Below are positions 1 through 59,951 of a stretch of 64,000 nucleotides of DNA, in pieces (position 1 is the stretch's first letter; each line of letters opens with the position of its first letter). Source of the DNA: Candidatus Saccharimonadota bacterium (GTDB taxonomy: Bacteria > Patescibacteriota > Saccharimonadia > Saccharimonadales > Saccharimonadaceae); the NCBI GenBank assembly GCA_017511205.1, contig JAFWLE010000007.1, forward strand, positions 367 through 64,366, written 5' to 3'. The translations under genes were made by a program, and so were the position numbers. The notes under the pieces were generated by a model. That model worked only from the letters and a program-made list of their open reading frames with translations. It made no database searches and was not told where the DNA came from.

Positions 1-3000
1 AAAGGTATAAGTTACGGTCTGGTTGCTAGAAAGCGTTGAAGTAGATGAGACTGTAGCATTAGCTCCAGAATTGGTTAAAGTGAAGCCTGATACTGTTCTA
101 GTATTAGTGGTGTTTGGTTTAGTTGGAGTAGTGATTGAGCCTAGAGTAGTATTTCCATAAGTTACGGTTGTAGAAGTAGAACCAGTATTACCACCGTTTC
201 TATCTAGTGTGATTGTATAGGTATTAGGTGAACAGAAACCAGTAAGAGTAAGGTCTGATCCAGGTGTCATAGAAGCTCCTGAATTATAACTTGTACCAGT
301 ATCCGATGAGTTAGTATTCCAATGGCAAGTATGTCCTGATAGTGTAATAGTAGGAAGGGTAATTGACGAGTAGGCTCCGCTACTCGCGGTATAACCTGCA
401 TAAAGTGTGACAGTACCACTAGTATCAGTCCATTGTTTACTTGAGTTAGTATAAGCTGTACTAGCCTGCAGAGCAGGTGCAGAAGCTATAGTATCAGCAA
501 TCAGTGTACTAGTCTGAGTAGAAGTCTGATGCCAACCATTAAAGGTATATGTAGTAGTATTGGTAGACTTACAATTAGTAGCTGAAGTACAACCACTACT
601 TGGATAAGTAATGGTAGCATCATTAGCAGAAGTTGCCTTATTAAAACCAGAAATGGTTCTAGTACCAGTGGTATTAGCTTTAGTTGGATTAGTAATAGCG
701 GCTAGCGTAGTAGAATCATAAGTAGCCGTGGTAGAAGATGATCCACCAGTTCCAGTATTATTATTGAGATTCACTGTATAGGTATTAGCTTTACATATAC
801 CATAAAGTGTAATGTTGCCAGTAGGCGTAATTGTCGCACCTGAATTATACGTGTAATTAGTCGCGCTACTATTAGTATCCCATCCACAAGTATATCCTGT
901 CTTAGTAATAGTAGGAAGTGTTACTGTAGCAAAGGCTCCGGCACTCGCAGTGTATCCCGCATAAAGTGTCACTGCTTCAGCTGCCGTATAAGTCCATTGT
1001 GAACCGGCACTAGTATAAGTAGTTCCTGGCATTAAGGCTGGCGTAGTAGCATTATTTGCTATCTTATTCGTATTAGCTGCTTCTTTATACCAACCATTAA
1101 AAGTATATGTCGTAGTATTAGTAGATTTACAATTAGATGTAGATGTACAATTACCTGATGTCTGGAATGTTACAGTAGCTCCAGATGCATTCGTACCATT
1201 AGCGGCTAGGCCACTAATAGTTCTAGTACCAGTTGTATTAGCTTTAGTTGGATTAGTGATTGTAGAAAGTGCTGTAGCGCCATAGTTAACTGTTGTAGAA
1301 GCGGAGCCTCCTGTCCCACCATTATTATTAAGTGTAATATTATTAACGCAGACACCATAAAGCGTCAGGTTCCCTGTTGGCGTAATGACCTTACCAGAAG
1401 TATAGTTAGAATCAATGGTGGTAGCCGAAGAGTTAGTACTCCAACCACAAGTAGCACCAGTCCTAGAAATAGTTGGAAGTGTAATGGTGGAGTATGAGCC
1501 TACACTGGCATCCCAACCAGCATATAGTGTAGCTCCACTGGTTCTCGTCCATTTGCTATTAGAATCAGTGTAGCCACTTACACTAGCCTGAAGTGCTGGA
1601 GTAGTAGAGTTAGATGCCACAAGTGTACCGGTACCGGATGTATCATGCCAACCATTAAAGGTATAAGTTACGGTCTGGGTGCTAGAAAGCGTTGAAGTAG
1701 ATGAGACTGTAGCATTAGCTCCAGAAGAAGTGAGTGTGAAACCTGATACTGTTCTGGTATTGGTGGTGTTAGCTTTAGCTGGATTAGTGATAGTAGAAAG
1801 GGTCGTAGAATCATAAGTAGCCGTGGCAGAAGAAGATCCACCAGTCCCACCATTGTTGTTTAGTGTGACTGTATAGGTATTAGGTGAGCAGACACCTTGT
1901 AATTCTATGCTGGTACTTGGGGTAATAGTAGCTCCTGAATCATAGTACGTGCTGGTACTATTCTTATCTTGCCATCTACAAGTATAGCCTGTAAGAGTAA
2001 TAGTAGGAAGCGTTACCGTATTATATCCTGTAGAGCTAGAGTTCCAGCCAGCATAAAGTGTCGCAGCAGTTGTTCTCGTCCATTCACTATTGGCATTGGT
2101 ATAACCTGATACACTTGGCTTCAGAGCTGGGATTGCCGCGGTAGTAGCTACTAGTGTACCAGTACCCGATGTATCATGCCAACCATTAAATGAATATGTG
2201 GTAGTGTTAATAGATTTACAGTTAGAAGCACTTGTACAGTTAGAAGTAGAAGTCCCATAAGTAACTGTAGCATTTGTAGCAGAAGAAGTCTTAGAAAAGC
2301 CAGAGACTGTTCTAGTATCCACTGTATTACTACAAGCTGGAGTAGTAATAGCACCAAGTGCAGTAGCACCATAAGTAGCAGTTGTAGAAGTAGAGCCAGC
2401 TGTAGCGGATGTCGGGCAGTTTCTGTTTAGGGTGACTGTATATGAGTTGGCTTTACTATTAGCTTTAAGAGTTGCAATACCTGCTCCTACGGTGAAGTTA
2501 GTACCAGATACTGTGCCAGCACCAGAAGTCTTTTCAAGTGGTGTATCACCAGCAATATAACCAGAATTATAATTAATGGTAATTGCATAGGTTTGTCCGT
2601 AGGTTAAATTCTTAGTACCGTTTTTCGCTACAGTACTGCCATCTACTGTAAAGTTATTTACATTAGAATCACCTGTAAAGGTAATAGTATAGGTATTAAT
2701 CTTACAAATACCATAGTATGTACCAGCCGTAGAAGCATCTAGTACCACATTAGCTTGCCCAGAACTATAGGTAAAGTCAGATGCCGTCTTAGTCTTACTC
2801 CAACCACAAGTATATCCAGTCTTCGTAATGGTTGGGAAGGTGACGGAAGAACCACTGCCCCATTGTGCATAAAGTGTAGCCGTATTAGCTCTTTGCCAGA
2901 TTCCACCAGCTCCAGTATAGTCAGAGACATTCGCAACTAATGCTCCATTAGTAGAATTATCTATTACTTTGCTACCACCACTTGTTGCAGTATACCAACC

Positions 3001-5814
3001 GTTAAAGGCATGTGTAGTAGTAATAGCAGTAGGTGCAGTTCCTCCATTTACGGTCGCACCTGATGCATCGGTGCCGTCTGCCGTGAAGCCTGAAGCACTA
3101 TATTGTCTTATTGGTTTAGTAATGTTGGCAGAAAGTATGGCTGAATCATAAGTAGCATTTACGGAAGTAGAGCCAGCTGTGGTAGCGTTGGTGTTAGTAA
3201 GGGTGATGGTATATGTATTTGCTTTGCATATACCATATAGTACTAAGTTAGAAGTAGGAGTAATAGTTTGTCCAGAATCATAAGTGTAATTAGTCGCACT
3301 GCTATTAGTATCCCATCCACAAGTATATCCTGTCTTAGTAATAGTAGGAAGAGTTACTGAATGATCTGTCCATTGTGAGTATAAAGTTACGGCACTGGCT
3401 GTAGTATAAGTCCAAGCGGAAGAAGCATTAGTATAGGTTGTGCTTGGCTGTAAGGCTGGTGTAGTAGCACTAGATGCTACTTTAGTGCCGCCAGAAGTTG
3501 CTGTATACCAACCATTAAAGTCTGCCGTATTAGTAAGAGTACTAGTTGAAGAAATGGTTGCATTAGCTGCATTAGTCCCAGCGCTGAATCCTGATACTGT
3601 AAACTTCCTTTGTGGAAGAGTAATAGCAGATAGTGAGGTAGCTCCGTAGTTTACAGTAGCACTTGTAGAACCAGCAGTTGTAGCACCTGAGTTACTAAGT
3701 GTAATGTTATTAATACAGACACCATAAAGCGTTAAGTTCCCTGTTGGTGTAATGACCTTACCGGAAGTATAGTTAGAATCAATGGTGGTAGCCGAAGAGT
3801 TAGTACTCCAACCACAAGTAGCACCAGTCCTAGTAATAGTTGGAAGTGTAATGGTGGAGTATGATCCTGCACTGGCATCCCAACCAGCATATAATGTAGC
3901 TCCACTGGTTCTCGTCCATTTACTATTAGAATCTGTATAGCCAGATACACTTGGCTTTAGTGCTGGCGTAGTAGAGTTAGATGCCACGAGTGTACCGGTT
4001 CCCGATGTATCATGCCAGCCATTAAAGGTATATGTTACTGTCTGGTTGCTAGAAAGAGTTGAAGTAGATGAGACTGTGGCATTAGCACCAGAATCGGTTA
4101 GTGTAAAGCCAGATACTGTTCTAGTGTTTGTAGTATTAGCCTTAGTTGGATTAGTAATGGTAGAAAGGGTCGTAGAATCATATGTAGCTGTAGCTGAAGA
4201 AGATCCACCAGTCCCACCATTGTTGTTTAATGCCACTGTGTAAGTATTAGGTGAACAGACACCATAAAGTGTAGTGTTTCCAACTGGTGTGATATTACTA
4301 CCAGATGGATAAAATGGATTAGAGGCAGTCGTAGCACCAGTACTAATGGTAGTCCAACCACAAGTGTATCCAGTCTTAGTGATAGTAGGAAGCTTAATGG
4401 TTTGTGAGCTCCATCCAGCATAGATAGTTACGTTTCCGGAAGTATCAGTCCATTGTGAAGTAGCGTTAGTGTAGGTAGTGCTAGGTTGAAGTGCTGGAAT
4501 AGTACTATTGGTTGCGATGAGCTTGGAACTGTCATTATTATTAGCAGCCGTCTGAGTCTCATACCAACCAGTTAATGTATAAGTAGATTTACAGTTAGTA
4601 GCTGAAGTACAAGGGCCACTAGGTGTAGCATCATAGGTTACCGTAGCGCTATCGGCTTTATTACCGGAAGGAAGTGTAAAGCCTGAAACTGTATAGACCC
4701 TCTGGGGTTTAGTAATGAGAGACATATTAGTGTCTTTATATGTGACTGATGTATTATTAGAACCAGGTGTAGTAGCATTTGTCGCACTTAAAGCTACAGT
4801 ATAGGAATTAGCCTCCCATATAGCATGGAGGGTAATATTAGTATTATCAATGGTTTGGTCTATACCATAGTTAGAGTTAGCTGCGTATGTAGTACCACCA
4901 CAAGTTTGGTTACCAGTAATTGGATCATTAGTAGTGGCCACGTCACACCAGCCTCTAAAGGTATATCCAACCCTTGTAGGTGTTGCGCTGGATAATACTG
5001 TATAGCTCTGAGCTGCGGAAGTATCTCCTGCTATTTCAGCACTTTGTGGATTAGGTGAAGGCATATTATTAACTGTGTCTTCTGTGTTTTCATCGTAAGT
5101 AATGCTATAAACTATATTATTGGATACGGCTCTAATGATATACGTATTGCTATAAGATCCAGCTGGAAGAGTAGAAGTTACTCTAGCACCAATAGACAAA
5201 GTATAAGTATTATTGGAACTATTAGCTACATGTGTAATATCCAGAAGATCACCAGTTGTAGTTGGTGATGGCAAGAAGTTAGTATTATTAGTAATAGTTT
5301 GTGGTGTAGAGCCACTACTATCTATATACTGACTAGGCTTATAGCCCCACTTATCGTTATAGGCCGTACCAGAAGAATCGGAAAAAGTAGCTTCCGAAAC
5401 AGCCGAATTAAGAGTATAAATCTCATGGTTAGATGAATCAGTTAGACTAGTGGTATTATTACTAGCTGCAATAGAAAGAGTATAGCCTGTGAAGTTATCC
5501 GTCCTTACTGTAATAGCAGCATCTGATGATTTACCAAATACTCCTGTGGCACCTGGCAGAATATCTACCGAAAGTGTATCGGTACTGACACCAAGAGTGA
5601 GAGTAGCTTTTTTGGCTTCGGCAAAAACATTAGAAGCATTCAAATCACTAAAACTAACCAAAGCTACAACTAAGAAAACACCCAGGAAAGAAGCTAAAAA
5701 ATTGAACCAAGAATAAGATTTAACAGTGGAGGACACAAAATGCCAAGCACCTCCACAGCGCCTAGCTACAAATCTCAAAGATCTGGGCTTATTAGCCTCA
5801 CTCCACTTACTCAT
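1..5814 (-). CDS. Giant secreted or cell-surface repeat protein of at least 1938 aa, built from tandem Listeria-Bacteroides-repeat (Flg_new / InlB B-repeat-like) modules. The 3' end runs off the window.
   Basis: I scanned plus-strand triplets in register 1-3, 4-6 and so on across 1-1680 and 4441-5814 and found no tta, cta or tca. The middle was translated by eye without stops. The ATG at 5814-5812 follows an in-frame TAA (5817-5815), and GGAGGT lies 14 nt upstream. The N-terminus MSKWSEANKPRSLRF... has a hydrophobic anchor WFNFLASFLGVFLVVALVSF and a cleavage-like VFA/EA site. The body repeats YTVTLN..GG..ATYDST..P.K...VSGFT...YTFNGW(H/Y)...LYAGW alternating with LPTITKTGYTCGW...LYGVC. The ORF is missing from the supplied track because it has no stop inside the window. 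Confidence 0.85.
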   Translation of the reverse strand, partial: MSKWSEANKPRSLRFVARRCGGAWHFVSSTVKSYSWFNFLASFLGVFLVVALVSFSDLNASNVFAEAKKATLTLGVSTDTLSVDILPGATGVFGKSSDAAITVRTDNFTGYTLSIAASNNTTSLTDSSNHEIYTLNSAVSEATFSDSSGTAYNDKWGYKPSQYIDSSGSTPQTITNNTNFLPSPTTTGDLLDITHVANSSNNTYTLSIGARVTSTLPAGSYSNTYIIRAVSNNIVYSITYDENTEDTVNNMPSPNPQSAEIAGDTSAAQSYTVLSSATPTRVGYTFRGWCDVATTNDPITGNQTCGGTTYAANSNYGIDQTIDNTNITLHAIWEANSYTVALSATNATTPGSNNTSVTYKDTNMSLITKPQRVYTVSGFTLPSGNKADSATVTYDATPSGPCTSATNCKSTYTLTGWYETQTAANNNDSSKLIATNSTIPALQPSTTYTNATSQWTDTSGNVTIYAGWSSQTIKLPTITKTGYTCGWTTISTGATTASNPFYPSGSNITPVGNTTLYGVCSPNTYTVALNNNGGTGGSSSATATYDSTTLSTITNPTKANTTNTRTVSGFTLTDSGANATVSSTSTLSSNQTVTYTFNGWHDTSGTGTLVASNSTTPALKPSVSGYTDSNSKWTRTSGATLYAGWDASAGSYSTITLPTITRTGATCGWSTNSSATTIDSNYTSGKVITPTGNLTLYGVCINNITLSNSGATTAGSTSATVNYGATSLSAITLPQRKFTVSGFSAGTNAANATISSTSTLTNTADFNGWYTATSGGTKVASSATTPALQPSTTYTNASSAWTYTTASAVTLYSQWTDHSVTLPTITKTGYTCGWDTNSSATNYTYDSGQTITPTSNLVLYGICKANTYTITLTNTNATTAGSTSVNATYDSAILSANITKPIRQYSASGFTADGTDASGATVNGGTAPTAITTTHAFNGWYTATSGGSKVIDNSTNGALVANVSDYTGAGGIWQRANTATLYAQWGSGSSVTFPTITKTGYTCGWSKTKTASDFTYSSGQANVVLDASTAGTYYGICKINTYTITFTGDSNVNNFTVDGSTVAKNGTKNLTYGQTYAITINYNSGYIAGDTPLEKTSGAGTVSGTNFTVGAGIATLKANSKANSYTVTLNRNCPTSATAGSTSTTATYGATALGAITTPACSNTVDTRTVSGFSKTSSATNATVTYGTSTSNCTSASNCKSINTTTYSFNGWHDTSGTGTLVATTAAIPALKPSVSGYTNANSEWTRTTAATLYAGWNSSSTGYNTVTLPTITLTGYTCRWQDKNSTSTYYDSGATITPSTSIELQGVCSPNTYTVTLNNNGGTGGSSSATATYDSTTLSTITNPAKANTTNTRTVSGFTLTSSGANATVSSTSTLSSTQTVTYTFNGWHDTSGTGTLVASNSTTPALQASVSGYTDSNSKWTRTSGATLYAGWDASVGSYSTITLPTISRTGATCGWSTNSSATTIDSNYTSGKVITPTGNLTLYGVCVNNITLNNNGGTGGSASTTVNYGATALSTITNPTKANTTGTRTISGLAANGTNASGATVTFQTSGNCTSTSNCKSTNTTTYTFNGWYKEAANTNKIANNATTPALMPGTTYTSAGSQWTYTAAEAVTLYAGYTASAGAFATVTLPTITKTGYTCGWDTNSSATNYTYNSGATITPTGNITLYGICKANTYTVNLNNNTGTGGSSSTTATYDSTTLAAITNPTKANTTGTRTISGFNKATSANDATITYPSSGCTSATNCKSTNTTTYTFNGWHQTSTQTSTLIADTIASAPALQASTAYTNSSKQWTDTSGTVTLYAGYTASSGAYSSITLPTITLSGHTCHWNTNSSDTGTSYNSGASMTPGSDLTLTGFCSPNTYTITLDRNGGNTGSTSTTVTYGNTTLGSITTPTKPNTTNTRTVSGFTLTNSGANATVSSTSTLSSNQTVTYTF
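1330..1896 (-). repeat. Copy A of a 567-bp in-frame segmental duplication inside the giant surface-protein gene
   Basis: It is colinear with 3697-4263 at a constant offset of 2367 nt at the start, middle and end. Positions 1397-1466 match 3764-3833 perfectly (70 nt). Overall identity is roughly 90 percent by eye. Confidence 0.8.
3697..4263 (-). repeat. Copy B of the 567-bp in-frame segmental duplication
   Basis: See copy A. The length is 189 codons and I saw no indels. Confidence 0.8.
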
Positions 5815-6052
5815 TTACTCTATGTGTTACCTCCACTTTTAATAACACTATATTTATTTTATTATTGAATAAATAAAAAAGCAAGAGCAGAATCGTTAAA
5901 AAACTTACGTTAATTCAAATAGTTTTCCACAGGTTGACTTAAATCCCAAACATGTTTAGAATTTTTTGAGTCAACGCCAAGCGTTATTATTTTACAAAAC
6001 AAAAGAACTGTCCTGCCTTCAACAAAAAATAGCAAATCTAAAACCTAAAAAA

Positions 6053-6337
6053 CTATTGCTTACTAGTATGACGCTTATGCTCTATTCCTTTGAAAAAAGA
6101 AATAATAGCTGAAACTGCAAAGATTATAGCAAGACAAAGTAGAAAAAATGATACAGCGTCAATCAAAAAATGTTCTATCCCAAGACTAAAACAGTTTCCA
6201 ATTCCTTCTCCCCAACCATGATTTTCGCACCATTTATATTTATTTGGATCGTTAATTACCAACCTTAAAAATAAAAAAGCTAAGAGTGAAATAGTACTGA
6301 CGACAACACATTTCCATAAACTAAAACGCTTCATCAT
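6053..6337 (-). CDS. Small hypothetical membrane protein (94 aa, about 2-3 hydrophobic helices)
   Basis: The ORF has hydrophobic stretches (VVVSTISLLAFLFLRLV and AVSFFLLCLAIIFAVSAIISFF). It is tightly packed behind the TPR gene, whose stop is at 6339. I recognised no family. Confidence 0.5.
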   Translation of the reverse strand: MMKRFSLWKCVVVSTISLLAFLFLRLVINDPNKYKWCENHGWGEGIGNCFSLGIEHFLIDAVSFFLLCLAIIFAVSAIISFFKGIEHKRHTSKQ

Positions 6338-8923: not shown

Positions 8924-9077
8924 AATTTGGGAGAGTATCGACCAAAATGAACTTGTTCATTTTGGACGTATACGAACCCAAATTAAAATAACGAAGTTTT
9001 TTCGATAGTTTCTATTTCAAAACGCCCGACAGCGGAAGACATTTTGCTTTAGCAAAATGTCTACCACAGTCAAGCAT

Positions 9078-9884
9078 CTATATCGCTTTTGCATAAAGCA
9101 CAAGTCTTTGCGTAGCATCCCCACCACCAAGTGGCTGACCCGCACAAGTCATAATTGCAAGATCATAAGACACGCCTGCATCATAATCATAAGCTCTAGC
9201 AATACTATTCATATAATTTTTCTTACCACCGTTACGCCTAAGAGCACCATTAGCCGTCGAATTATCCTTATCGTAATACACCTTACTGCCCACTCTGTAA
9301 GTCGTCTCACGACCATTCACCCTCACTACAAATGTCGAACCCACGCCTAATCTAGAAATACCGCCAAAAATCGAAGCATAGTTATGACCATAAAGGAGCT
9401 TCTGAATCCGATTCACGTGGTTACCAGAATCCACTACACTACTCACGTTTACAATTTCAATCGTATTCCCCGCAATTGTAATCGAATTAGCTGGTGCTGC
9501 AGGCTTTGGAGCAGGTTTAGAAGCAGGCTGAGCTGCCGGCTTTGCCGTGTTAGTAGCTGGTTTAGCCGTTTGAGTTACCGGCTTAACACTAGACTTCTGT
9601 ACTGATTTAGCAGTTGTCTGAGCAGCAGATTGCGTAGCATTTGCAGCAGGTTTTTCATTGTTTTCGACCGCTTTTTCTTCAGACTTTTCAGTCTCTTTTT
9701 CAGCCTCCAAAAAACCTTCCTTCGAATTATCGTCTATCTTTACTGGCTCTTCAGAAACTTCCGCGGTAGCAGCCACATCATCATCCTCAGATAACGAAGC
9801 AGAATCAGTAGGCACAAAAAGGCTACCTAAACCAAATAAACCTAAAACCCCCGTTAAAACCATCAAAAAAAGGCTCTTCGCCAT
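9078..9884 (-). CDS. Sortase-like transpeptidase (class E/F-like) with an N-terminal TM anchor and an Ala/Pro/Lys-rich linker
   Basis: Its order of conserved residues parallels the second sortase in the window: GHN (LLYGHNYASIF), a TLxTC-like LAIMTCAG, and a distal Arg (QRLVLYAKA). The start was moved to MAKSLFLMV (9884), which has GGGAG upstream. Confidence 0.65.
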   Translation of the reverse strand: MAKSLFLMVLTGVLGLFGLGSLFVPTDSASLSEDDDVAATAEVSEEPVKIDDNSKEGFLEAEKETEKSEEKAVENNEKPAANATQSAAQTTAKSVQKSSVKPVTQTAKPATNTAKPAAQPASKPAPKPAAPANSITIAGNTIEIVNVSSVVDSGNHVNRIQKLLYGHNYASIFGGISRLGVGSTFVVRVNGRETTYRVGSKVYYDKDNSTANGALRRNGGKKNYMNSIARAYDYDAGVSYDLAIMTCAGQPLGGGDATQRLVLYAKAI

Positions 9885-9991
9885 AATTAACTCCCATTTA
9901 ATGACCAATTTATGTTTTAATTATATCACACTTAGCTTAAAATGTCAATGCTTATAAATCAAATACCAAAATTTGCCAAATCAAAGCCACT

Positions 9992-10002
9992 TGTGCTACA
10001 AT
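9992..10002 (+). promoter_or_regulatory. Extended -10 promoter (TGTGCTACAAT) for thyA-folA-glyA
   Basis: TGTGCTACAAT lies 17 nt upstream of the thyA ATG, and AGGAGG (10011-10016) sits between them. Confidence 0.55.
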
Positions 10003-10019
10003 TATAAAAAAGGAGGTAA

Positions 10020-10985
10020 ATGAACAAGTTTGATGAAAAATATATCGACCTCTGTCGACGTATCCTAAAAGAAGGCGAGGAAATCACTAATTACGCCAAA
10101 ACCGACCAGAGGAAGAAAAGTGATGCCTCGGCCATGCCTTTTCATAAAGCTCAAGGAGAGCAAGGTTCCGAAACCATCAGATTACCTCATCAAATTTTCC
10201 AATTCGACCTCGAAGAAGGATTCCCTATTCTCACCTCTAAAAAAGTAGCATTTAAAACATCTGTTCTAGAGCTGCTGTGGATTTTTCAAGTTGCTTCAAA
10301 CGATGTTCGGTGGCTAAAAGAACGTGGTGTCAAAATTTGGGACGAATGGGAAATCTCTGAAAAGGGCATCTATCAGGGGCGAAATATCAATCAAATCTTC
10401 CAAAAAAATCACCAAAACGAGCCAAAAACCGACTTTGCCCACACTATTGGTACCGCTTACGGCTGGATCGTTAGCCGCTATAATCTCGTCGAAAACCTCA
10501 TTGCTACCCTCAAAAATACCCCTGGCAATCGCCGCATGGTCCTTTCACTCTGGCAAAACGAATGGCTCGAAACCGCCGCTCTTCCCTCTTGCGTCTGGAA
10601 TTCAGAATGGAACCTCACCAATGGCCGCCTTAATCTGTTAGTTAATTCCCGCTCCTCTGATGTACCCCTAGGGCTCCCCTTCAATATCGTCCAATACGCA
10701 ATTTTTGATTATTTGATTGCTAGAACCATCGGTGCAAAACCCGGTCTCTTTACCTTTATCACCAACGACGCCCATATCTATAAAAATCAAATCCCCGGTA
10801 TTAAGGAACAAATCCGCCGCTATGACGAAGCAGTCAAAACTCACACGTTACCAAAACCTCCCAAGCTTTGGCTCAACCCCGAAATTAATGATTTTTACGC
10901 CTTTGATAACTCCAAAGACTTAAAAGATATCAAACTAATCGATTATAATCATCTTGGCGCCATCAAAATGCCAGTTACGGAGTAA
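10020..10985 (+). CDS. thyA: Thymidylate synthase (ThyA type)
   Basis: The motifs RRMVLSLWQ, LPSCVW, SRSSDVPLGLPFNIVQYA and NDAHIYKNQ match the ThyA active-site regions. Confidence 0.92.
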   Translation: MNKFDEKYIDLCRRILKEGEEITNYAKTDQRKKSDASAMPFHKAQGEQGSETIRLPHQIFQFDLEEGFPILTSKKVAFKTSVLELLWIFQVASNDVRWLKERGVKIWDEWEISEKGIYQGRNINQIFQKNHQNEPKTDFAHTIGTAYGWIVSRYNLVENLIATLKNTPGNRRMVLSLWQNEWLETAALPSCVWNSEWNLTNGRLNLLVNSRSSDVPLGLPFNIVQYAIFDYLIARTIGAKPGLFTFITNDAHIYKNQIPGIKEQIRRYDEAVKTHTLPKPPKLWLNPEINDFYAFDNSKDLKDIKLIDYNHLGAIKMPVTE

Positions 10986-10986
10986 A

Positions 10987-11460
10987 ATGTTTACAATCAT
11001 CGCTTGTATCGGCCAAAATCGAGAGCTAGGAAAAGACAATAAACTCATTTTTCATCTCAAGGACGATCTAAAATTTTTCCAAGAAACTACGCTAAACCAC
11101 AAAGTCGTCATGGGGCGAAAAACCTGGGAATCCCTGCCCCAAAAGCTCAAAAATCGCGAAAGCATCGTAATCTCGCGTCAAAATTTTGCGGGCCCTGACC
11201 TAATTGTCCACAATTCAGATGAATTCATTGAAAAATTTCAAAACACCCCCGAAGAAATTTTCATCATCGGCGGAGCAACCATCTACCAGAAATTTCTTCC
11301 CTTTGCAAAGTCGATTTATCTCACAGAAGTAGATACCCCAGAACCTACTGCTGACGCCTTTTTCCCTGTTTTTGACAAATCTAATTATTCTAGTAAACTA
11401 ATTAAAAAAGGCACTGAAAATGGTCTAAGCTATCAGATAACTCGGTATATTAAAAACTAA
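10987..11460 (+). CDS. folA: Dihydrofolate reductase
   Basis: MFTIIACIGQNRELGKDNKLIFHL...VVMGRKTWESLP...IFIIGGATIY is the typical DHFR signature. The ATG lies 1 nt after the thyA stop. Confidence 0.9.
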   Translation: MFTIIACIGQNRELGKDNKLIFHLKDDLKFFQETTLNHKVVMGRKTWESLPQKLKNRESIVISRQNFAGPDLIVHNSDEFIEKFQNTPEEIFIIGGATIYQKFLPFAKSIYLTEVDTPEPTADAFFPVFDKSNYSSKLIKKGTENGLSYQITRYIKN

Positions 11461-11507
11461 ATTTAAATTCCAAATGGACTTAATTTTACTTATAAAGAAA
11501 GGAAAAA

Positions 11508-12875
11508 ATGAAAGATTTAGTGTTTGACCTGATAAAACAAGAGAAAACCCGCCAAGAAGAAGGCCTAGAACTAATTCCCAGCGAAAACTACGTTTCTCCT
11601 GCTGTTCTCGCTGGAATGGGTTCGATTTTAACCAACAAGTATTCCGAAGGCTATCCAAGCTTCGAAGGTATCCCCGGCTGGGATGAAGCCAAAATTTCCC
11701 AAGAAATCCTTCCCAACTACCGCTATTATGGCGGCCAACAAAATGTCGATCGAATCGAGCGCCTAGCTATTAGCCGCGCTTGCCAGCTTTTTCATGCTGA
11801 TCACGCCAACGTCCAGCCCCACTCTGGCGCCCAAGCCAATAATGCTGTATACTTTGCCTGGCTAGAGCCCGGCGACACGGTACTTGGCATGTCACTTCCC
11901 GCTGGCGGGCATCTGACCCATGGCGCCTCTGTCACTCAAAGCGCCAAAATTTACAATTTTGTGAATTACGGCGTCACAAAAGACGGCGATATTGATTACG
12001 ACGAGCTCGAATCACTGGCAAAGAAGCACCATCCCAAAGTCATTTTAATCGGCTATTCTGCCTTTATGAAAATCCCTGATTTTGCCCGTGTCGCCAAAAT
12101 CCGCGATGATCTTTCAAAAGAAACCGGCGAAGAAATCCTACTAATGGCCGATATGGCTCACGTCGCTGGTTTAATCGCCGGTGGCGTTCATCCTAACCCT
12201 CTAGATTATGGCTTTAATGTGATGACCACCACTACGCATAAAACTTTACGCGGTCCTCGTGGCGGCTTAATATTAACAAAGGGTAACGTCGCTTCCCCTC
12301 TAAAAAAACCCGAAAAAACTCTGAAAAATATTCCTATTTTAATTGATCGTGCAGTCTTTCCGGGCACTCAAGGAGGACCACTAGAGCACATCATCGCCGC
12401 AAAAGCCATCGCCTTCGGCGAAGCCTTAAAGCCCGAGTTCAAAATTTACGCTAAAAACATCGTTGAAAACGCCAAATCTTTAGCCGAGGCACTGAAAAAA
12501 GAAGGCTTCATTCTCCAAGGCAACGGCACCGAAAACCATCTTATTCTCGTCGACATCAAAAAAAGCTTCGATATCGACGGCAAGTTCTACGAACAAGCTC
12601 TCGACCAAATTGGACTAACATTGAACGCCAATGCTTTGCCTAGCGACCCCTCCGGGTCCTTCCGTCCTTCCGGCGTCCGACTCGGCACCCCCGCTATGAC
12701 CACCAGAGGCCTTGGCGAAGCTGAAATGTCCCAAATCGCCACCTGGATGAAAAAAGTTGCTATCATCTGCCAAAAAGCTGGCTCTATCGAGAATCTCCCG
12801 AATTTTCAATCCGACCTCGATGCCCTCCGTGCCGAAGTCCGCACTCTTGCCCTGCGCTTCCCCCTTCCAGAGTGA
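11508..12875 (+). CDS. glyA: Serine hydroxymethyltransferase
   Basis: [15 protein letters not shown]...NKYSEGYP and the PLP-lysine region [14 protein letters not shown] are present. Confidence 0.95.
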
Positions 12876-12929: not shown

Positions 12930-15101
12930 TCACGATGTACTTCTCCTACGTCCAGAGCTTGCTATATTAGTAAATCCAGCCGCCAAAATAGCCTTTTTAA
13001 AAGATCCAAAACGTTTCATAAAAAGGGCAGAGCTAGGCAAAGAGGGCTCTTTGTCCACATCACGCTTAGAAGGAACTCGACCTATCCTTTGTCCATAATC
13101 CCATAACAATTTTAAAAGAGCATCATTCTCCTGCTCAGAAAAAGGCAATTCTAATTTCGCCATCCTTAGAGCAGACTCATAAGATGAAAATCTTTTCCTG
13201 TACATATCACTAGAAGGCATGTCTAAAGCAGCATCTATCTCTATCGTGGTAGGAGTATGGCCTATTTTCTCCGCGAAATCAACCAGCTTTTTCAAAAGCC
13301 AATCGTTGCTATATTTCTTATATCTCCAATTTTTGGCTCGTGGCAATCCCAAAGAATCACCTAGTTTTCCAATACTACCAAAACGATTGCGGTAGCAACC
13401 AGGAGAAGGCAATTTAGGATTATCTTTTATCTCTTCTGAATTTGGCCTTCGACCTAGTTCATTGGCAAACTCTAAATAAAGATTAGCCATTTCGTCATCG
13501 CTCAGATCATATGCTCCACGAGATTTACCTAACCCAGCCTTTTCTGTCGCAGCCATTAGGCCACCAAATCTATTACGATAGGTGACCGCTGATGGCATAT
13601 CCGGAAACTTGTTAAGATCCTTCGACGTAGGCACATGACCAACTCGTTCAGCACAAATACAAAGAAAGTCTAACAATTCCTTGTCAGAGTATCTCTTGTT
13701 ATTTGGCTTTAGCTCAAAACCAGCTAGTAAGCATGCCTCAACAAAACTCCCAAAATGATTGGCATATGTAGTAGCATTTGGCATATCCGGATCAGCATTT
13801 ACTTCCATTATAGATGGAGTATGGCCAAGTTTAATGCCAAACTCTTTCAAAAGTTGAAGCAATTCGTCATTCGAATATGATCCAACATAGTTTCGTGCCT
13901 TTTCAATTAGTTCAATGATATCCACCTTACGATCCCTGAACACTGGAGTATCGATCTCTAAGTTAAAAAACTCATGCTCTTCATCGATCTTCCTGTGAGG
14001 ATATCTAGAAATAGATTCATTAAGCTCCTTTTGAAGCTGGCATAGCATGCAAAAACGTTCAACCGCTCCCACAAAATCTAACACCAAAACTTTCCCTTTA
14101 TTCTCAGCCAAACGCAAACCACGCCCTAACTGTTGAGTAAAGACAATTTTGGACTGCGTCACACGAAGAAACACGATTACATCGGTTCTTGGGACATCTA
14201 TTCCCTCATTTAGCATATCAACTGCACAAACAGTCTTAATGCTACCAGAATAGAATCCTTCAAGCCTTTCCCGAACGGTGTCATCATCCAATTTGGAATG
14301 AATCACTACAGCATCACCCATAAGCTCTGCAAATCGTTCTGCATGTTCGATAGTCTGACAAAATATCACCGTAGTAGGATCCTTCTTGTGAGACAACTCC
14401 TCTTTAATGATGCGAACAATTTCTTCATCCCTTTTTGGCACAAACACCTTACGGTTGAGCTGACTCAACGAGATTCTAACTTCTGTATCCAAAAACTGTT
14501 GCAAATTCTGAATCTCGTCAGTCAAAACATGGTAATCTAAATCAGACAGCCAACCGTCTCTAATAGCCGATTCCAATCTGTATTCGAATACCGTTTTCCC
14601 AAAAATATCCTCAAGTCCAGCAGCATCCGTACGTTCTGGCGTAGCAGTCATACCGAGTAAAAACTGCGGTTTAAAATACTGAATCGCCTTCTTGTACGTT
14701 TCAGCTGGGCTATGATGAGCCTCATCCACAATACAGTAGGAAAACTCATCTGGTGCAAATTCATCCTTGTGAATGTTCACGGATTGTAAATTGGCAAATA
14801 GAAAATCCGTTTTTGTAGAAGCTTTTTCTACGCCATTATACATTCCGTAACTATACTCATCCCCAAAAACTTTCTTGAAATATTTCTTTGTCTGATACTG
14901 AATTGCTTGTGAATGACATAAGACTAAGACACGACCATCACGATGGCTTTTAAAATATTGAACAATATCAAAAGCGCTAGTAATAGTCTTCCCTAGCCCC
15001 GATGCCATTACAATCAAAGCTTTATTTTCTCCTTCAGCCCTAGCTTTACTAAGTGCCTTAATGCATTCTCTTTGATATACTCTTGGTTTATATGCGTTCA
15101 T
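12930..15101 (-). CDS. Stand-alone SF2 (DEAH, ResIII-like) helicase fused to five tandem homing-endonuclease-associated repeats (HNH_repeat-like)
   Basis: The helicase motifs are I ASGLGKT, II IVDEAHH, III MTATPER and VI QQLGRGLR. The C-terminal half has five units of about 60 aa with the pattern ..ELL..L......GH.P(S/T)..E.......P(S/N)...Y...FGS...A...AG(F/L). The start is set at MNAYKPRVYQ (15101), preceded by GGGGGG. Confidence 0.8.
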   Translation of the reverse strand: MNAYKPRVYQRECIKALSKARAEGENKALIVMASGLGKTITSAFDIVQYFKSHRDGRVLVLCHSQAIQYQTKKYFKKVFGDEYSYGMYNGVEKASTKTDFLFANLQSVNIHKDEFAPDEFSYCIVDEAHHSPAETYKKAIQYFKPQFLLGMTATPERTDAAGLEDIFGKTVFEYRLESAIRDGWLSDLDYHVLTDEIQNLQQFLDTEVRISLSQLNRKVFVPKRDEEIVRIIKEELSHKKDPTTVIFCQTIEHAERFAELMGDAVVIHSKLDDDTVRERLEGFYSGSIKTVCAVDMLNEGIDVPRTDVIVFLRVTQSKIVFTQQLGRGLRLAENKGKVLVLDFVGAVERFCMLCQLQKELNESISRYPHRKIDEEHEFFNLEIDTPVFRDRKVDIIELIEKARNYVGSYSNDELLQLLKEFGIKLGHTPSIMEVNADPDMPNATTYANHFGSFVEACLLAGFELKPNNKRYSDKELLDFLCICAERVGHVPTSKDLNKFPDMPSAVTYRNRFGGLMAATEKAGLGKSRGAYDLSDDEMANLYLEFANELGRRPNSEEIKDNPKLPSPGCYRNRFGSIGKLGDSLGLPRAKNWRYKKYSNDWLLKKLVDFAEKIGHTPTTIEIDAALDMPSSDMYRKRFSSYESALRMAKLELPFSEQENDALLKLLWDYGQRIGRVPSKRDVDKEPSLPSSALFMKRFGSFKKAILAAGFTNIASSGRRRSTS

Positions 15102-15232
15102 ATTGACCCCCCATTCTTTACAAGAAAAGCATCTTGCCGTTACCGGCAGAATGAGAGGCTCCAAAAAACCACCCATTCTACCGGCAAAAAGAGGGTCACT
15201 TTTAAAGTGCTTTATACGGTCACATTAAAACC

Positions 15233-18503: not shown

Positions 18504-18934
18504 TATGGTTTCCTTTCTCCCTTTGGTCGCACACCACCATGCGCAATCGGGGTTACATCGGTAATACTATCGATTTTTATACCAACCGTCGAAATTGCTC
18601 TAATCGCCGCATCACGGCCTAGACCAATCCCAGAGACATAGACATCCACTGAATTCAACGCGTGGTTTTTCTTCGCAATTTCTAAGGCCTTTTCAGCCGC
18701 AACTCCAGCTGCAAAAGCTGTCCCCTTTTTAGAACCGCGAAAACCATTCGCACCTGCCGATGAAGCAGCCAGCACACCGCCAGACTTATCCGTCACACTA
18801 ATAATCGTGTTATTGAATGTTGCCTGAATATGTACTGCGCCACTATTTACAATTCTTTTACCTTTTTTAGCCTGTTTCGACTTAGGAGCTTTTGACTCAA
18901 CAGTCTCAGGCACTGTAATATTTTCTTCTGCCAT
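18503..18934 (-). CDS. rpsK: 30S ribosomal protein S11
   Basis: The core is HIQATFNNTIISVTDKSGGVLAASSAG...GSKKGTAFAA, with an N-terminal extension. Confidence 0.95.
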   Translation of the reverse strand: MAEENITVPETVESKAPKSKQAKKGKRIVNSGAVHIQATFNNTIISVTDKSGGVLAASSAGANGFRGSKKGTAFAAGVAAEKALEIAKKNHALNSVDVYVSGIGLGRDAAIRAISTVGIKIDSITDVTPIAHGGVRPKGERKP

Positions 18935-18943
18935 TTATCCTCC

Positions 18944-19330
18944 TTAAGTCTTACTTGCTGCCTTTGGTTGTGCACCACCGACCGCGATCGCCTTGCCCTT
19001 ACGAGTACGTGCATTCGTACGAGTACGTTGGCCGTTGACTGGTAATTTAGCCTTGTGGCGGATACCCTTGTAAGAATTAATGTCTTTAAGACGTTTGATA
19101 TTATTGCTCACGAGGCGCTTCAAATCACCCTCGACCCGATATTTCGCGGAAATAATGTCGTTGATTTTTTGTTCGTCAGCCTCGGTGAGATCTTTCACCC
19201 GAGTGGTAGGCTCGATTTTAGCCTCCGCAAGGATGGCTTTTGAAGTCGTGCGCCCAATTCCGTAAACATAAGTAAGAGCAATCCATACTTGCTTATCGGA
19301 AGGAATCACGACACTAGCTATTCTAGCCAT
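18944..19330 (-). CDS. rpsM: 30S ribosomal protein S13
   Basis: The N-terminus [26 protein letters not shown] is typical of uS13. Confidence 0.95.
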
Positions 19331-19853: not shown

Positions 19854-20546
19854 TTATTCCAAAACTAGCACCGCTCTCACAAACTGACGCGAAAGATAAG
19901 TCTGCCGACTTTGCGACCATTCACCCGTACAAGAAATCAAAGTCAGCGATTCAATTCCTTCTTCTGGCGACTGAGCCGCCTTAGCCATATAACTGTCCGA
20001 ATCGTTCAAAGAAATCGAAACGCTCTCGACTACACTATATTCAAACAAGACTCCATCACCCCGTTCAATCTGCAAAATATCCCCCGCCATCAAATCTGGC
20101 AGCCTTTTAAAAACGCCAGTCTTAGTCGGACCACCATTATGCCCATCGATAATCATCGTACCACCTTGCCCAGGTTTACTAGACCCTTCATACCAACCCA
20201 CGTCAAAAATATTACGTGGTGTATCTAGCTCACCTTTAGAGTTTACTCCCATCGGTAAAACTCTAGCGTTCTTCACCCCAAGTTTATCAATCGTTAAATA
20301 ACGCGGCCGATCCGGTGCCACATTATAATCTTTAATCGCTTCTTCAGTTGGCTCCGTCTCGTCTAGCTCCGGCGGTTCGTCGGCTGCCTCAGCTACTGCT
20401 CGTTCACTACCTTCTTTTTCGTCATAATAAGCATTTTCAAAACTAATCACCCGAATCAGGAAAATCAAAAGAAAGAGCGCCACTAACCCCCAGAAAACCC
20501 AAGTGGCAATTCTTCGCCAACCCTTAATTCTCAAGCTCATCGCCAA
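19854..20546 (-). CDS. Sortase-family transpeptidase (class F-like) with an N-terminal TM anchor
   Basis: It has the His motif IIDGHNGG, the TLxTC-type motif LTLISCTG, and the distal Arg in RQFVRAVLV. It sits where adk-map normally lies between secY and infA. Confidence 0.75.
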   Translation of the reverse strand: MAMSLRIKGWRRIATWVFWGLVALFLLIFLIRVISFENAYYDEKEGSERAVAEAADEPPELDETEPTEEAIKDYNVAPDRPRYLTIDKLGVKNARVLPMGVNSKGELDTPRNIFDVGWYEGSSKPGQGGTMIIDGHNGGPTKTGVFKRLPDLMAGDILQIERGDGVLFEYSVVESVSISLNDSDSYMAKAAQSPEEGIESLTLISCTGEWSQSRQTYLSRQFVRAVLVLE

Positions 20547-21954
20547 AATCGTCGTATGTTACCATCAATGCCCTAGAGTCTATCGACCGTAGATTCTCTA
20601 GCGCCACCGTCACTACAATGAGAAGCCCGGTACCAGAAATCGAAAGGCCAAGCGGCGAACCAGTTGTCAAAATGAAGATATAATCCGAAATAAACGGCAA
20701 CATTGCAATAAACCCTAGCGATAGAGCTCCAAACAAATCCAAATGGTTTACTACCTTACTAAGATACTTTGCCGTGCTAATCCCTGGCCGTACACCCTCG
20801 ATAAAACCACCTTGCTTTTGCAAATTGTCCGCAATTTCTTTTGTATTAAAGATAATCGAAGTATAGAAATAAGTAAACATAAATACTAGTAAGAAGTAAA
20901 GTGCTGGATAAACAAACCATTGTGCTGTGATACCATCCGGATACAGTGTCGCAAAATTGCTAGCCGAAGGCGCAGAAAAGACCGTCGTCAAAGTTTGACC
21001 AATCTCATTCTCAGCATCAAAGGTCGTAATCACCTGCCCCACGAGTGCCGGCAAAGACAAAAATGCCGTCGCAAAAATCACCGGAATCACGCCCGCCGCA
21101 ATCAACTTAATCGGTAAAATCGATTTAATCCCGCCATAAGACGAGTTTCCGTGCACCCTCTTAGCATAATTAATTGTAATAATTCGCTGCGCTTCGTTCA
21201 ACTTCACCAGGATAAATATCACAATTAACATAATTAAAGCAAATACCACAAACCCCCAGAAAATCGAAGCTTGCACCGGAAATTCCATGCCAAAAAGATT
21301 CAGGTTAATCTCGTCTATAATCGCCAGCCGCGCTGTGAGCGAGCCCATCATTGAAGGAAGTTGCGAAATAATGGAAGCAAAGATGAGTGTAGAAATACCA
21401 TTACCAATACCCTGCTCCGTAATTAGCTCACCCAACCACATCAAAATCACTGAACCAGCTGTCATTGCCGTCACCGAAAGTGCCCAATCGCCAAACGTCG
21501 GCGTGAAGTCCGAAGCTACATTAGCTGCCACCGTAGATTGATACAAAATAAAGATATAAGCGATTGACTGAATAATCGCTAGAGGTACTGTTAGAATACG
21601 GGTCCACTGATTAATTTTACGACGACCCACTTCGCCATCATTAGATAATTCTTCGAGCGAAGGAATCGCTTTGGTAATTAATTGCACTACAATCGAAGAG
21701 GTAATATAAGGCGAGAGACCAACCAAAATTATACTAAACGAAGCTAGGCCACCACCAGAAATCATATTGAGAAAACTCGAAAAATCAGACTTATCTAAAA
21801 GATTCGTCACGGCTTCCTTAAAAGTCGCAGCATCACCCATTGGCACTGGAATTTGTGCCAAAAAACGATAGGCCACCAAAATGCCAAAAATCACCATCAC
21901 CCGCTTCAGCATGTCTTTATTTTTTAGAGATTTGAAAATATTCTTGAAATGCAT
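20524..21954 (-). CDS. secY: Preprotein translocase subunit SecY
   Basis: 476 aa and about 10 TM helices. SecY motifs include GGGLASFSIILVGLSPYITSSIVVQL and ISTLIFASI. Confidence 0.95.
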   Translation of the reverse strand: MHFKNIFKSLKNKDMLKRVMVIFGILVAYRFLAQIPVPMGDAATFKEAVTNLLDKSDFSSFLNMISGGGLASFSIILVGLSPYITSSIVVQLITKAIPSLEELSNDGEVGRRKINQWTRILTVPLAIIQSIAYIFILYQSTVAANVASDFTPTFGDWALSVTAMTAGSVILMWLGELITEQGIGNGISTLIFASIISQLPSMMGSLTARLAIIDEINLNLFGMEFPVQASIFWGFVVFALIMLIVIFILVKLNEAQRIITINYAKRVHGNSSYGGIKSILPIKLIAAGVIPVIFATAFLSLPALVGQVITTFDAENEIGQTLTTVFSAPSASNFATLYPDGITAQWFVYPALYFLLVFMFTYFYTSIIFNTKEIADNLQKQGGFIEGVRPGISTAKYLSKVVNHLDLFGALSLGFIAMLPFISDYIFILTTGSPLGLSISGTGLLIVVTVALENLRSIDSRALMVTYDDFGDELEN

Positions 21955-57816: not shown

Positions 57817-59289
57817 CTAGGAATCTAGCAAGCACCTCATTGAGAGTCCGTAGTAGCGACCGTAGCCGTACGTGGGGTTGACACTGCTTGAATACACGCT
57901 GAGGTCGTACATGATGCCGTCACTGCGCCTAGTAGAAGACCAGAAGTTGCCGCCCGTGCCCTGATTGTACGCCGAGCCACTGCCGAAGAGGCCCGACAGA
58001 GGAGTAGAAAGATTATATTGGAGGCTAGCGGTATTTGTTGCAGTTTGAGTAGTATTATAGTAACCATACAATGAATTATACTCACCACTAGAGTCACCAG
58101 TAGGCATTCTCCAGCCAGCCGGGCAAAGGTCTTCAGTGGCATTGCCAGAACTGGTGCCTTCACTTTTACCATTACCATAGCAGTAAGAGCCTGCAGATGC
58201 GGCACAGTAGTTGTAATATATTCCGATTTTACCACTACCATTACCATAGCTGGTGGTAGTTTGATCTTTGTAAGTGGAGATAGTCATAGGTACACTATAA
58301 AAGTTTTGGGAATTAGAAGACCAGGTCTCGTTATTGAGCGGTGCAGTTGGATATTGATCAGAAGTGGTACCACCACCATTCTTAAGATAGCCAAGTGATG
58401 TAGTAGAAGCGTTAGTGTTGCTGGCCGTAGTGTTATTCAGAACAGTTGAATCAGTAAGGTCTAATCTTAAGTTATCTAGAAGCCATAGATTTCCGTCTTT
58501 TAGTTTGGATACGCAGTATGGTTCCTCATCACGAGAATCTCTTAAGTAATATGGGGCTTCTTCAGTGAGGCTAGCTAGAACGGAAGCTTTATTGGAACTA
58601 TTGATATCCTGCATATACTTCACGCCCGGAACTTTAGTACTACAAGTTTCTGGTGGTGTAGGACCATCTTCTGTTTCCGGACTAGTCACCGCATAGAAGG
58701 TAATGATATTGGTATAAGTTCCGGCAGCCTGACTCGTAGAAGCCTTAGCACCTATTTTAAATTTGATAGATTGATTGTCTGCTGGACTAGTAGTTTCTAT
58801 TAAGGCTTTACCAGTAGCACCTTCATCATCATTATCTTTAGGAAGTCCTGAATAATTAGACCAAGTAGAACCATTATCATCTGAAATACGATAGCCCCAA
58901 GTATTGTCTGTGGAGAGACTAGCTAGACTAGCATTAGTAGCAATGCTAGTGAATTTGTAGTTACTATTCTCTGTATTTACAAGATCTGTATTAGTAGATG
59001 AAGTACCAGCTGTAGCAGTGAGATAATAGCCATAGGTAGCGTTAGTAGTGACACTTACTGTGAGTATATTACTATCTGCTACGGAGCCTGGAGTGAGGTT
59101 ATTAATGATCAGATCTGTACTAGCAGTATCAGAAGAAAGATTGATGGAAATAGTGGGGTTAAAGGTAAAGGAGACGTCGACATTATCCTGATAAGTCACG
59201 GCAGAAGTATCTATCACCCCTAAAAAGCCGCAAAAAACCGCCAGCATCAAAGCCAACGAACTAATTCTTACCAATTTTATACTTGTCAT
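57817..59289 (-). CDS. Secreted surface protein with an N-terminal beta-rich module shared with the giant protein and a C-terminal Fibrobacter-succinogenes-major-paralogous (FISUMP, TIGR02145-like) domain
   Basis: It has a signal or TM segment (ISSLALMLAVFCGFLGVI). FISUMP landmarks are YCVSKLKDGNLWLLDNL, GIYYNYCAA, LCPAGWRMPT, NFWSST and the terminal GLSMRCL. The start is set at MTSIKLV (59289), with AAGGGGAA upstream. Confidence 0.8.
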   Translation of the reverse strand: MTSIKLVRISSLALMLAVFCGFLGVIDTSAVTYQDNVDVSFTFNPTISINLSSDTASTDLIINNLTPGSVADSNILTVSVTTNATYGYYLTATAGTSSTNTDLVNTENSNYKFTSIATNASLASLSTDNTWGYRISDDNGSTWSNYSGLPKDNDDEGATGKALIETTSPADNQSIKFKIGAKASTSQAAGTYTNIITFYAVTSPETEDGPTPPETCSTKVPGVKYMQDINSSNKASVLASLTEEAPYYLRDSRDEEPYCVSKLKDGNLWLLDNLRLDLTDSTVLNNTTASNTNASTTSLGYLKNGGGTTSDQYPTAPLNNETWSSNSQNFYSVPMTISTYKDQTTTSYGNGSGKIGIYYNYCAASAGSYCYGNGKSEGTSSGNATEDLCPAGWRMPTGDSSGEYNSLYGYYNTTQTATNTASLQYNLSTPLSGLFGSGSAYNQGTGGNFWSSTRRSDGIMYDLSVYSSSVNPTYGYGRYYGLSMRCLLDS

Positions 59290-59448
59290 AATCGCACCAT
59301 TCCCCTTATAACTACCATTATACATTAGCACTTTTATTTACACAATAGTTTTTTACAAAAAATCTCCACAAAAATGCATAAAAAATTCCCCCGAGGCGTC
59401 CATTCTTAAAATGTTACCCCGAGGGATTTTGAAAGGAAAGTGAGATGT

Positions 59449-59838
59449 CTATTTATCATACTGATAGCAGCATAATAAATCATTCAGCTTTAACTTTCGA
59501 TAGTAGCCAATCTTGCAACCAGTGTAATAAAGTATTGCATAGGTGAACAGACCAACTACTAAAATAGCCATCGGCGCTACGACGAAAAGCGCGTAGAAAC
59601 CGGTTGTATCATCGGTACCCAACACGGCATCTAGGCCAGTCACCAAAGAGCGACCACCCCAAATAGCCATTGAAGCCGCCACAATGACGGCGAAGATTAT
59701 TGAGAAGAAGTTAAACATCTTCTCGTTATATCTTCTTCTTATTTTTCCATCTGCTATCCTATACTGGGCTATGCCCAAAACAGATATAACTATGAGTCCG
59801 ATAACGAATGCTATAATAGTGTTAAACATAATCCTCAA
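59449..59838 (-). CDS. Hypothetical integral membrane protein (129 aa, about 4 TM helices)
   Basis: The hydrophobic helices are IIAFVIGLIVISVLGIA, FFSIIFAVIVAASMAIWG, FYALFVVAPMAILVVGLFTYAILYY. Confidence 0.55.
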   Translation of the reverse strand: MRIMFNTIIAFVIGLIVISVLGIAQYRIADGKIRRRYNEKMFNFFSIIFAVIVAASMAIWGGRSLVTGLDAVLGTDDTTGFYALFVVAPMAILVVGLFTYAILYYTGCKIGYYRKLKLNDLLCCYQYDK

Positions 59839-59951
59839 CCCCCTTATCTGATTATGTATTGGTTCTTAGATTGAGATCCCTTTTTCTCAATCTACACCCT
59901 AATTATAGCACAAACACTTTAAAAAGTCAATACTAGCAACACAAAACTGGA

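Follow-up and report, generated by a model that had tools for sequence, protein, structure and literature searches.

The window analysed here is a 64,000-nucleotide stretch of a Candidatus Saccharimonadota genome (assembly GCA_017511205.1, contig JAFWLE010000007.1, positions 367 to 64,366 of the forward strand), and its first 5.8 kb carry, on the minus strand, the 5' part of a giant gene for a repeat-rich protein. The frame starts with the ATG at 5814 and stays open as far as base 1, 1,938 codons without a single stop in the translation of the window, as an earlier note on this DNA had read it. The extension of the frame which that note proposed came from a second assembly, the 129.6-kb ENA contig L004, located via a tetratricopeptide repeat (TPR) gene that neighbours the giant gene. 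There the same gene is open over 3,032 codons, with no stop, and is still open at the contig end, so that the 3' end is not reached and the length of the gene, at least 3,032 codons or amino acids (aa), is a lower bound. The gene is real, exceeds 3,000 codons and belongs to a member of the Saccharibacteria (TM7). It had been described as invisible in the supplied track of open reading frames (ORFs), and over 1-5814 the ORF lister does return nothing that reaches 80 aa, because by design it leaves out ORFs that run off an end. The features of the gene and its product within the window are as follows.

1-5814, minus strand: giant gene, 5' part, 1,938 codons; the frame continues past the window edge
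5830-5834, minus strand: GGAGG Shine-Dalgarno-like motif, read from the sequence, 15 nt upstream of the ATG at 5814
5620-5814, minus strand: N-terminal leader, aa 1-65, with a long n-region, a predicted hydrophobic helix at aa 36-55 and an AxA-type site, VFA↓EA
5107-5619, minus strand: N-terminal module (N-module), aa 66-236 (171 aa), a predicted all-beta sandwich with motifs TDNFTGYTLSI, YNDKWGYKPS and NTNFLPSP
4816-5106, minus strand: SR0, canonical Listeria-Bacteroides (LB, InlB B-type) repeat, aa 237-333, with Cys at aa 290 and 305
4255-4815, 3715-4254, 3226-3714 and 2704-3225, minus strand: super-repeats SR1 to SR4, each a composite of a long and a short unit
2455-2703, minus strand: X1, extra 83-aa module, predicted beta, aa 1038-1120, between SR4 and SR5
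1888-2454, 1348-1887, 793-1347 and 232-792, minus strand: super-repeats SR5 to SR8, boundaries (as for the others) from repeat alignment and identity matrix
1-231, minus strand: first 77 codons of SR9, the ninth super-repeat, cut by the window edge

An alternative start, an in-frame GTG at codon 27, has its own GGAGG 13 nt upstream. The abundance of Thr, Ser and Asn pointed out in the earlier note is borne out by the composition of the protein (22.1, 13.3 and 8.7%, compared with 5.7, 6.1 and 4.5% in the other minus-strand ORFs of the window). The plus-strand GC skew is +0.10 to +0.16 over the giant gene (1-6000), probably because of its 22% Thr, encoded by ACN codons; elsewhere in the window, where coding is mostly on the minus strand too, the skew ranges from -0.10 to -0.33, with values near zero at 58001-60000. 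Directly upstream of the giant gene lies a 94-aa ORF (6053-6337, minus strand), also called in L004, which has two hydrophobic segments and no family match.

Most of the protein is made of composite super-repeats. Tandem Repeats Finder found nothing here, the period of about 500-560 nt exceeding its 500-nt limit and the copies being diverged, and the units were defined instead by repeat search and protein self-alignment. Eight complete super-repeats of 163-189 aa lie in the window and at least 14 in L004 (overall range 155-189 aa); the "at least nine" of the earlier note amounts within the window to these eight and 77 aa of a ninth, preceded by one canonical LB repeat. The super-repeats are mostly 40-60% identical in protein sequence, with SR2/SR6 (96%, and 90% in DNA), SR3/SR10 (84%) and SR9/SR12 (100%) as recent duplicates. 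The codon motif for FNGW, ccaaccRttaaa on the plus strand, recurs exactly at 532, 1090, 1648, 2179, 2995 and 3508, against 0.04 occurrences expected by chance; at 4015 we find a one-base variant, CCAGCCATTAAA, that still encodes FNGW, while the variant at 4564 encodes LTGW. Paired Cys residues, previously attributed to every unit, are present in all short units (two in each), but among the long units only those of SR1, SR5, SR7 and SR8 contain a CX5C pair, and those of SR2, SR3, SR4 and SR6 have no Cys at all.

The long and short units had been taken for different repeats, a view that the profile matches contradict. Relative to the Pfam family Flg_new (PF09479), the long unit fits positions 1-34 plus a second stretch (19.6 bits) and the short unit fits positions 20-63 (25.8 bits); read in this way, the long unit is an LB repeat split and expanded by insertions and the short unit a truncated one. 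The whole protein matches Flg_new over nine stretches with 60.8 bits (E=1.4e-16), well above the cut-off of 27, and SR0 alone reaches 29.4 bits; in the family consensus SR0 is conserved as one unit with the N-module. With the other LB-repeat model, TIGR02543, the whole protein gave no match at E<=1 and super-repeat SR2 none either; a relative, P0181, scored 41.2 bits. The structure of a super-repeat was predicted too, as proposed earlier, and its best matches are InlB B-repeats: an AlphaFold2 (AF2) model of SR4 and X1 has a pLDDT of about 93 across SR4, for which the top Foldseek matches in the PDB are weak by E-value (7nms, 7pv9 and 2y5p; probability 0.92-1.0, TM-score at most 0.61 on a 72-aa target, E 0.06-0.18). 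The identity of the stalk as LB repeats is supported by these results.

The interval between 2179 and 2995 does carry the extra module that the earlier note placed there, X1. Its description as Ig-like and unrelated is not established; modules similar to X1 are present in the relatives P0018 and L006. In the AF2 model X1 has a pLDDT of 75-82 up to its middle and of less than 50 beyond it. Another accessory module, X2, is located beyond the window, in L004; Pfam matches neither of the two (for X1, none at E<=1).

At its N-terminus the protein had been credited with a signal anchor. The hydrophobic helix at aa 36-55 is seen in the AF2 model, and an Ala-rich (AxA) site is kept in 15 homologues, immediately before the first conserved strand. 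Because this conserved site directly precedes the domain, a cleavable Sec signal peptide is likelier than a signal anchor, and it is probably cut at VFA↓EA, judging by the position and conservation of the site.

The N-module that follows is the sole novel element of the protein, undescribed by any domain library. No Pfam or NCBIfam model matches it, it has no sequence match among solved structures, and a comparison with a viral fold library gave nothing informative. Trp, Gly, Tyr and Pro positions are invariant (in motifs such as TDNFTGYTLSI and WGYKPS), and the AF2 model is all-beta, its pLDDT exceeding 90 between aa 70 and 230. Run against 1.84 billion representatives, a profile built from the module picks up 2,347 clusters at E<=1e-3 and 396 when the limit is set at E<=1e-30. 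The proteins are 200-2,300 aa long, and in almost all of them the module occupies residues ~30-230. The three relatives of the giant protein found in reference genomes are all Candidatus Saccharibacteria (two of them from sheep jejunum or ileum), as are the two named members of an N-module cluster, and NCBI labels Saccharibacterial relatives "InlB B-repeat-containing protein". Among 42 sampled members, Flg_new is present in 34, Fib_succ_major in 22, Big_2 and Lcl_C in eight each, and a tyrosine-phosphatase domain and Flg_new_2 in five each. The window itself holds a second, much smaller member of the family:

57817-59331, minus strand: small paralogue, 504 aa, with a signal peptide, a distant N-module and a Fib_succ_major-type C-terminal domain

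This paralogue is the minimal architecture of the N-module family. It matches the hidden Markov model (HMM) of the N-module with E=4.6e-14 and Pfam Fib_succ_major with 21.9 bits, and it has no LB repeats; with TIGR02145 it scores 35 bits (E=2.2e-8), under the 41.65 cut-off. A gene akin to it lies at 1796-3172 of contig L003.

How the giant protein ends can be approached through its relatives. L001, a complete homologue of 1,620 aa that shares the long and short units, carries a Fib_succ_major domain (34 bits) at its C-terminus and has no anchor. L008, the closest super-repeat relative in metagenomes (62% identity), likewise has a C-terminal Fib_succ_major domain, with 65.7 bits. A FISUMP-type "xRCx" end is found in 82 of the 143 top family members. 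Because the C-termini of the relatives end in this manner, we expect a FISUMP-type or other globular head in the giant protein, and not a sortase signal. The domain is absent from the available 3,032 aa, which lack the C-terminus of the gene; a metagenome scan for the missing end returned only relatives of at most 62% identity, and a protein search with module X2 returned a single 80-aa fragment, on a mis-scaffolded contig.

Taken together, these observations make it reasonably likely that the product of the gene is an extracellular fibrillar protein of giant size, at least 3,032 aa long, from a gut-type member of the Saccharibacteria. In this model, the protein would be exported by Sec and its signal peptide cleaved at the AxA site, leaving a mature N-terminus that opens with the beta-sandwich N-module and continues into a single LB repeat with a disulfide bond. 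Together these two elements would make up a constant base, shared across a large family of modular proteins that Saccharibacteria secrete. The base would carry a stalk of at least 14 composite super-repeats, equivalent to at least 28 modified InlB B-type domains, expanded and truncated, with a few accessory beta modules inserted along its length. By analogy with the closest relatives, the stalk would most likely end in a Fib_succ_major (FISUMP) binding head. The likely role would be adhesion or contact, the repeats serving as a spacer while binding, to the surface of a host bacterium or to glycans of the animal gut, falls to the variable end domain. A role as fibre or adhesin is plausible, and the N-terminal base may be the end proximal to the cell.

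Several results weigh against this reading. The C-terminus of the gene was not recovered, since L004, the sole longer contig, ends inside the gene. TIGR02543, one of the two profiles proposed earlier as a check on the repeats, falls short where Flg_new does not: SR0 scores 19.6 bits (E=8.9e-4), below the cut-off of 20.95. The Foldseek E-values are weak both for the super-repeat (0.06-0.2) and for the N-module (0.004-0.1). Finally, a subfamily of N-module proteins has a transmembrane C-terminus, which would place the N-module distally and reverse the polarity of the model above.

This last point belongs to an alternative in which the giant protein is a fibrillar adhesin of classical Gram-positive type, held by an uncleaved signal anchor or processed by sortase at an LPXTG motif, with the N-module as its distal adhesive tip. 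There is a sortase gene in the window (19854-20546, minus strand; Pfam E=9.7e-17, active site TLISC), and the end of the giant gene, where a sorting signal would be encoded, lies beyond the available sequence. It is the sole sortase found: the second one reported in the earlier note was not recovered by phmmer with the first as query, by a scan for the TLxTC motif or by Pfam scans of 38 other ORFs. Its link to the giant gene, which is 14 kb away, is weak, and it adjoins secY; the sortase ORF overlaps the 3' end of secY (20524-21954, minus strand) by 23 nt, and the two may be co-transcribed. The transmembrane C-terminus occurs in five proteins (P0031, P0032, P0072, P0097 and P0132), whose sequences close with a conserved P[LQ]GV[ST] motif, a transmembrane segment and then a charged tail. 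Such a three-part end is unlike LPXTG and could be a Saccharibacterial sorting signal. The same five proteins combine the N-module with a tyrosine-phosphatase-family domain (HCRVGADRTG) and few LB repeats, and they form a subfamily separate from the giant protein. An LPXTG-like motif with a hydrophobic tail occurs in none of the 143 top family members, and a hydrophobic or LPXTG tail in none of the 17 metagenome relatives that have a stop codon, whereas both L001 and L008, which share the super-repeats, end in Fib_succ_major. With the conserved AxA site favouring signal cleavage in addition, we regard a classical Gram-positive architecture as unlikely. Like Gram-positive fibrillar adhesins, the giant protein is extremely long, with a signal peptide, distinct end domains and tandem beta domains arranged as a long stalk; it differs from them in that relatives with the same super-repeats have no sortase signal, and in that conservation lies at the N-terminal end, the C-terminal end being the variable and putatively the binding one.

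A second alternative makes the N-module a pilin-like module of the donor-strand-exchange kind that polymerises or docks the protein on a surface fibre, the LB stalk being an arm on the filament and the protein no longer a single tethered molecule. The best Foldseek matches of the N-module in the PDB are indeed donor-strand-complemented pilins (CsuA/B, 6fqa; Caf1, 3dsn and 1z9s; CfaB, 4y2l; FimF/G; PapE), together with the cannula protein CanA of Pyrodictium (9h8b, 7uii) and the N-domain of GH123 enzymes, and the predicted mature N-terminus opens directly with a conserved beta strand. These matches are weak (E 0.004-0.1, probability up to 1.0, target-normalised TM-score at most 0.58), E-values in this range are not significant, and beta sandwiches match promiscuously, so that the likeness to a pilin or cannula fold is suggestive only. 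A further argument comes from L007 (JAEEGL011209342.1, ORF 8960-12661), a protein of 1,229 aa in which a type IV pilin N-terminus (GFTLIELL; N_methyl, 28 bits) is fused to LB repeats, including the PTIT..G.TC.W short unit, as a "modular pilin" version of the stalk. This fusion shows that stalks of the kind can be carried by filament subunits. The giant protein itself differs from modular and donor-strand pilins in having no class III signal, and no chaperone, usher or dedicated assembly gene adjoins its gene. The N-module, moreover, has no sequence match among solved structures, and stand-alone N-module proteins, which we considered as candidates for a major pilus subunit, were rejected, since the short matches all look like contig-end fragments. 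On balance we find it improbable that the N-module acts as a donor-strand pilin. In the relatives L006 and L010, a TasA/camelysin-type N-terminus, suggested by an 'AYFEA' motif, was also considered and is not supported by Pfam.

Since the gene is repetitive, the quality of its assembly has to be weighed as well. Window and L004 are 100% identical across 17.2 kb, apart from a single substitution at window position 94 and one patch of 478 nt (window 4885-5362, codons 151-310), which spans the C-terminal half of the N-module and the first LB repeat. The patch contains 32 substitutions, 24 of them at third codon positions, with six amino-acid changes, and it resembles a tract left by recombination or gene conversion, or else a mosaic of strains within one of the assemblies. 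Diversity-generating mutagenesis was rejected as its source, the changes lying mainly at third positions and not being adenine-specific. The L004-type allele of the patch is also found in fragment P0001. The window edge falls 231 nt into SR9, inside a stretch of 497 nt that is repeated exactly in L004, as the common core of SR9 (L004 16963-17502) and SR12 (18775-19314). Because of this exact core, the copy number past the window is not trustworthy from short reads; L004 terminates in a second copy of module X2. Assemblies do break in this gene family: L004 and L002 break off inside the gene, and L005 is a scaffolded, frameshifted copy. Inside the window the situation is different, because the DNA of the super-repeats is diverged (mostly 51-67% identical, with a maximum of 90%), which allows unambiguous assembly and makes a collapse of repeats, a possibility that the earlier note had raised, unlikely there. 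That the gene is a pseudogene, or that its long frame or repeat number is the product of mis-assembled repeats, is therefore very improbable, given the absence of stops in 5.8 kb and in 9.1 kb of the second assembly, the existence of complete homologues, and the prevalence of third-position substitutions between assemblies, because of which we take the gene to be under purifying selection.

The other genes of the window are of the housekeeping kind and encode ribosomal proteins, an RNA polymerase subunit, SecY and aminoacyl-tRNA synthetases, together with thyA, folA and glyA. Placed between glyA and ribosomal protein genes is a gene (12930-15176, minus strand) for a 748-aa helicase of the ResIII/SNF2 type with five 'homing endonuclease associated repeats' (PF18780, 187 bits), an unusual fusion for a housekeeping region.

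Among known proteins, the closest comparison is with those carrying InlB B-repeats or LB repeats (PF09479, TIGR02543), which include InlB of Listeria and adhesin-like proteins of gut Bacteroidetes, Firmicutes and methanogens. With these the giant protein shares an above-threshold Flg_new match, predicted secretion and an origin in an animal-associated microbe, and the best match of its predicted fold is the InlB B-repeat. It differs in its composite repeats, with insertions of ~50-70 aa and a truncated repeat with a Cys pair; it has neither leucine-rich repeats (LRR) nor an internalin domain, its length of over 3,000 aa is far greater, and its relatives with the same super-repeats lack an LPXTG or GW anchor. 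Proteins with Flg_new have been treated as adhesin-like factors of gut adaptation (PMC9723798). The second comparison is with FISUMP (PF09603, TIGR02145) and DUF1566/Lcl_C proteins, through the Fib_succ_major domain of the sampled family members, of L001 and L008 and of the small paralogue; in the giant protein, whose C-terminus lies beyond the available sequence, this domain is not observed. The FISUMP-type proteins of Fibrobacter and Legionella are usually short lipoproteins, and Fib_succ_major and DUF1566 are variable domains of the C-type-lectin type that are targeted by diversity-generating retroelements (PMC5758913).

Saccharibacteria live attached to other bacteria. Their genomes are reported as reduced, and transposon sequencing (Tn-seq) of a cultured Saccharibacterium indicated that 'multiple adhesins' are needed for epibiotic growth (PMC10633639); a part in attachment has so far been shown experimentally for type IV pili only (PMC10633639, PMC12206443). 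The Tn-seq result and the published views of Flg_new proteins and of Fib_succ_major and DUF1566 domains given above fit a function in adhesion or contact. In the literature that we searched, we found no paper tying Saccharibacteria to LB repeats, and the giant protein, probably an adhesin, belongs to a kind that carries a label in databases but has never been studied. Because at least 9 kb of sequence are devoted to it, and because it belongs to a large unnamed family with an undescribed N-terminal domain, the gene is a reasonable candidate for a contact protein. Short-read assemblies routinely break in these genes, and ORF tracks miss them at contig ends; thousands of Saccharibacterial proteins would be better annotated if the N-module were described as a domain family. 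It is a speculative and rather improbable idea that the N-module and its attached LB repeat are a Saccharibacteria-specific docking or polymerisation module, of pilin-like donor-strand fold, on which interchangeable payloads are mounted. If so, the payloads displayed on the surface of these episymbionts would include lectin-like FISUMP heads, phosphatases and Ig stalks, and in the present case a stalk exceeding 3,000 aa, and the giant protein would be a long-reach arm for host contact, helping to decide which bacteria the epibiont attaches to.

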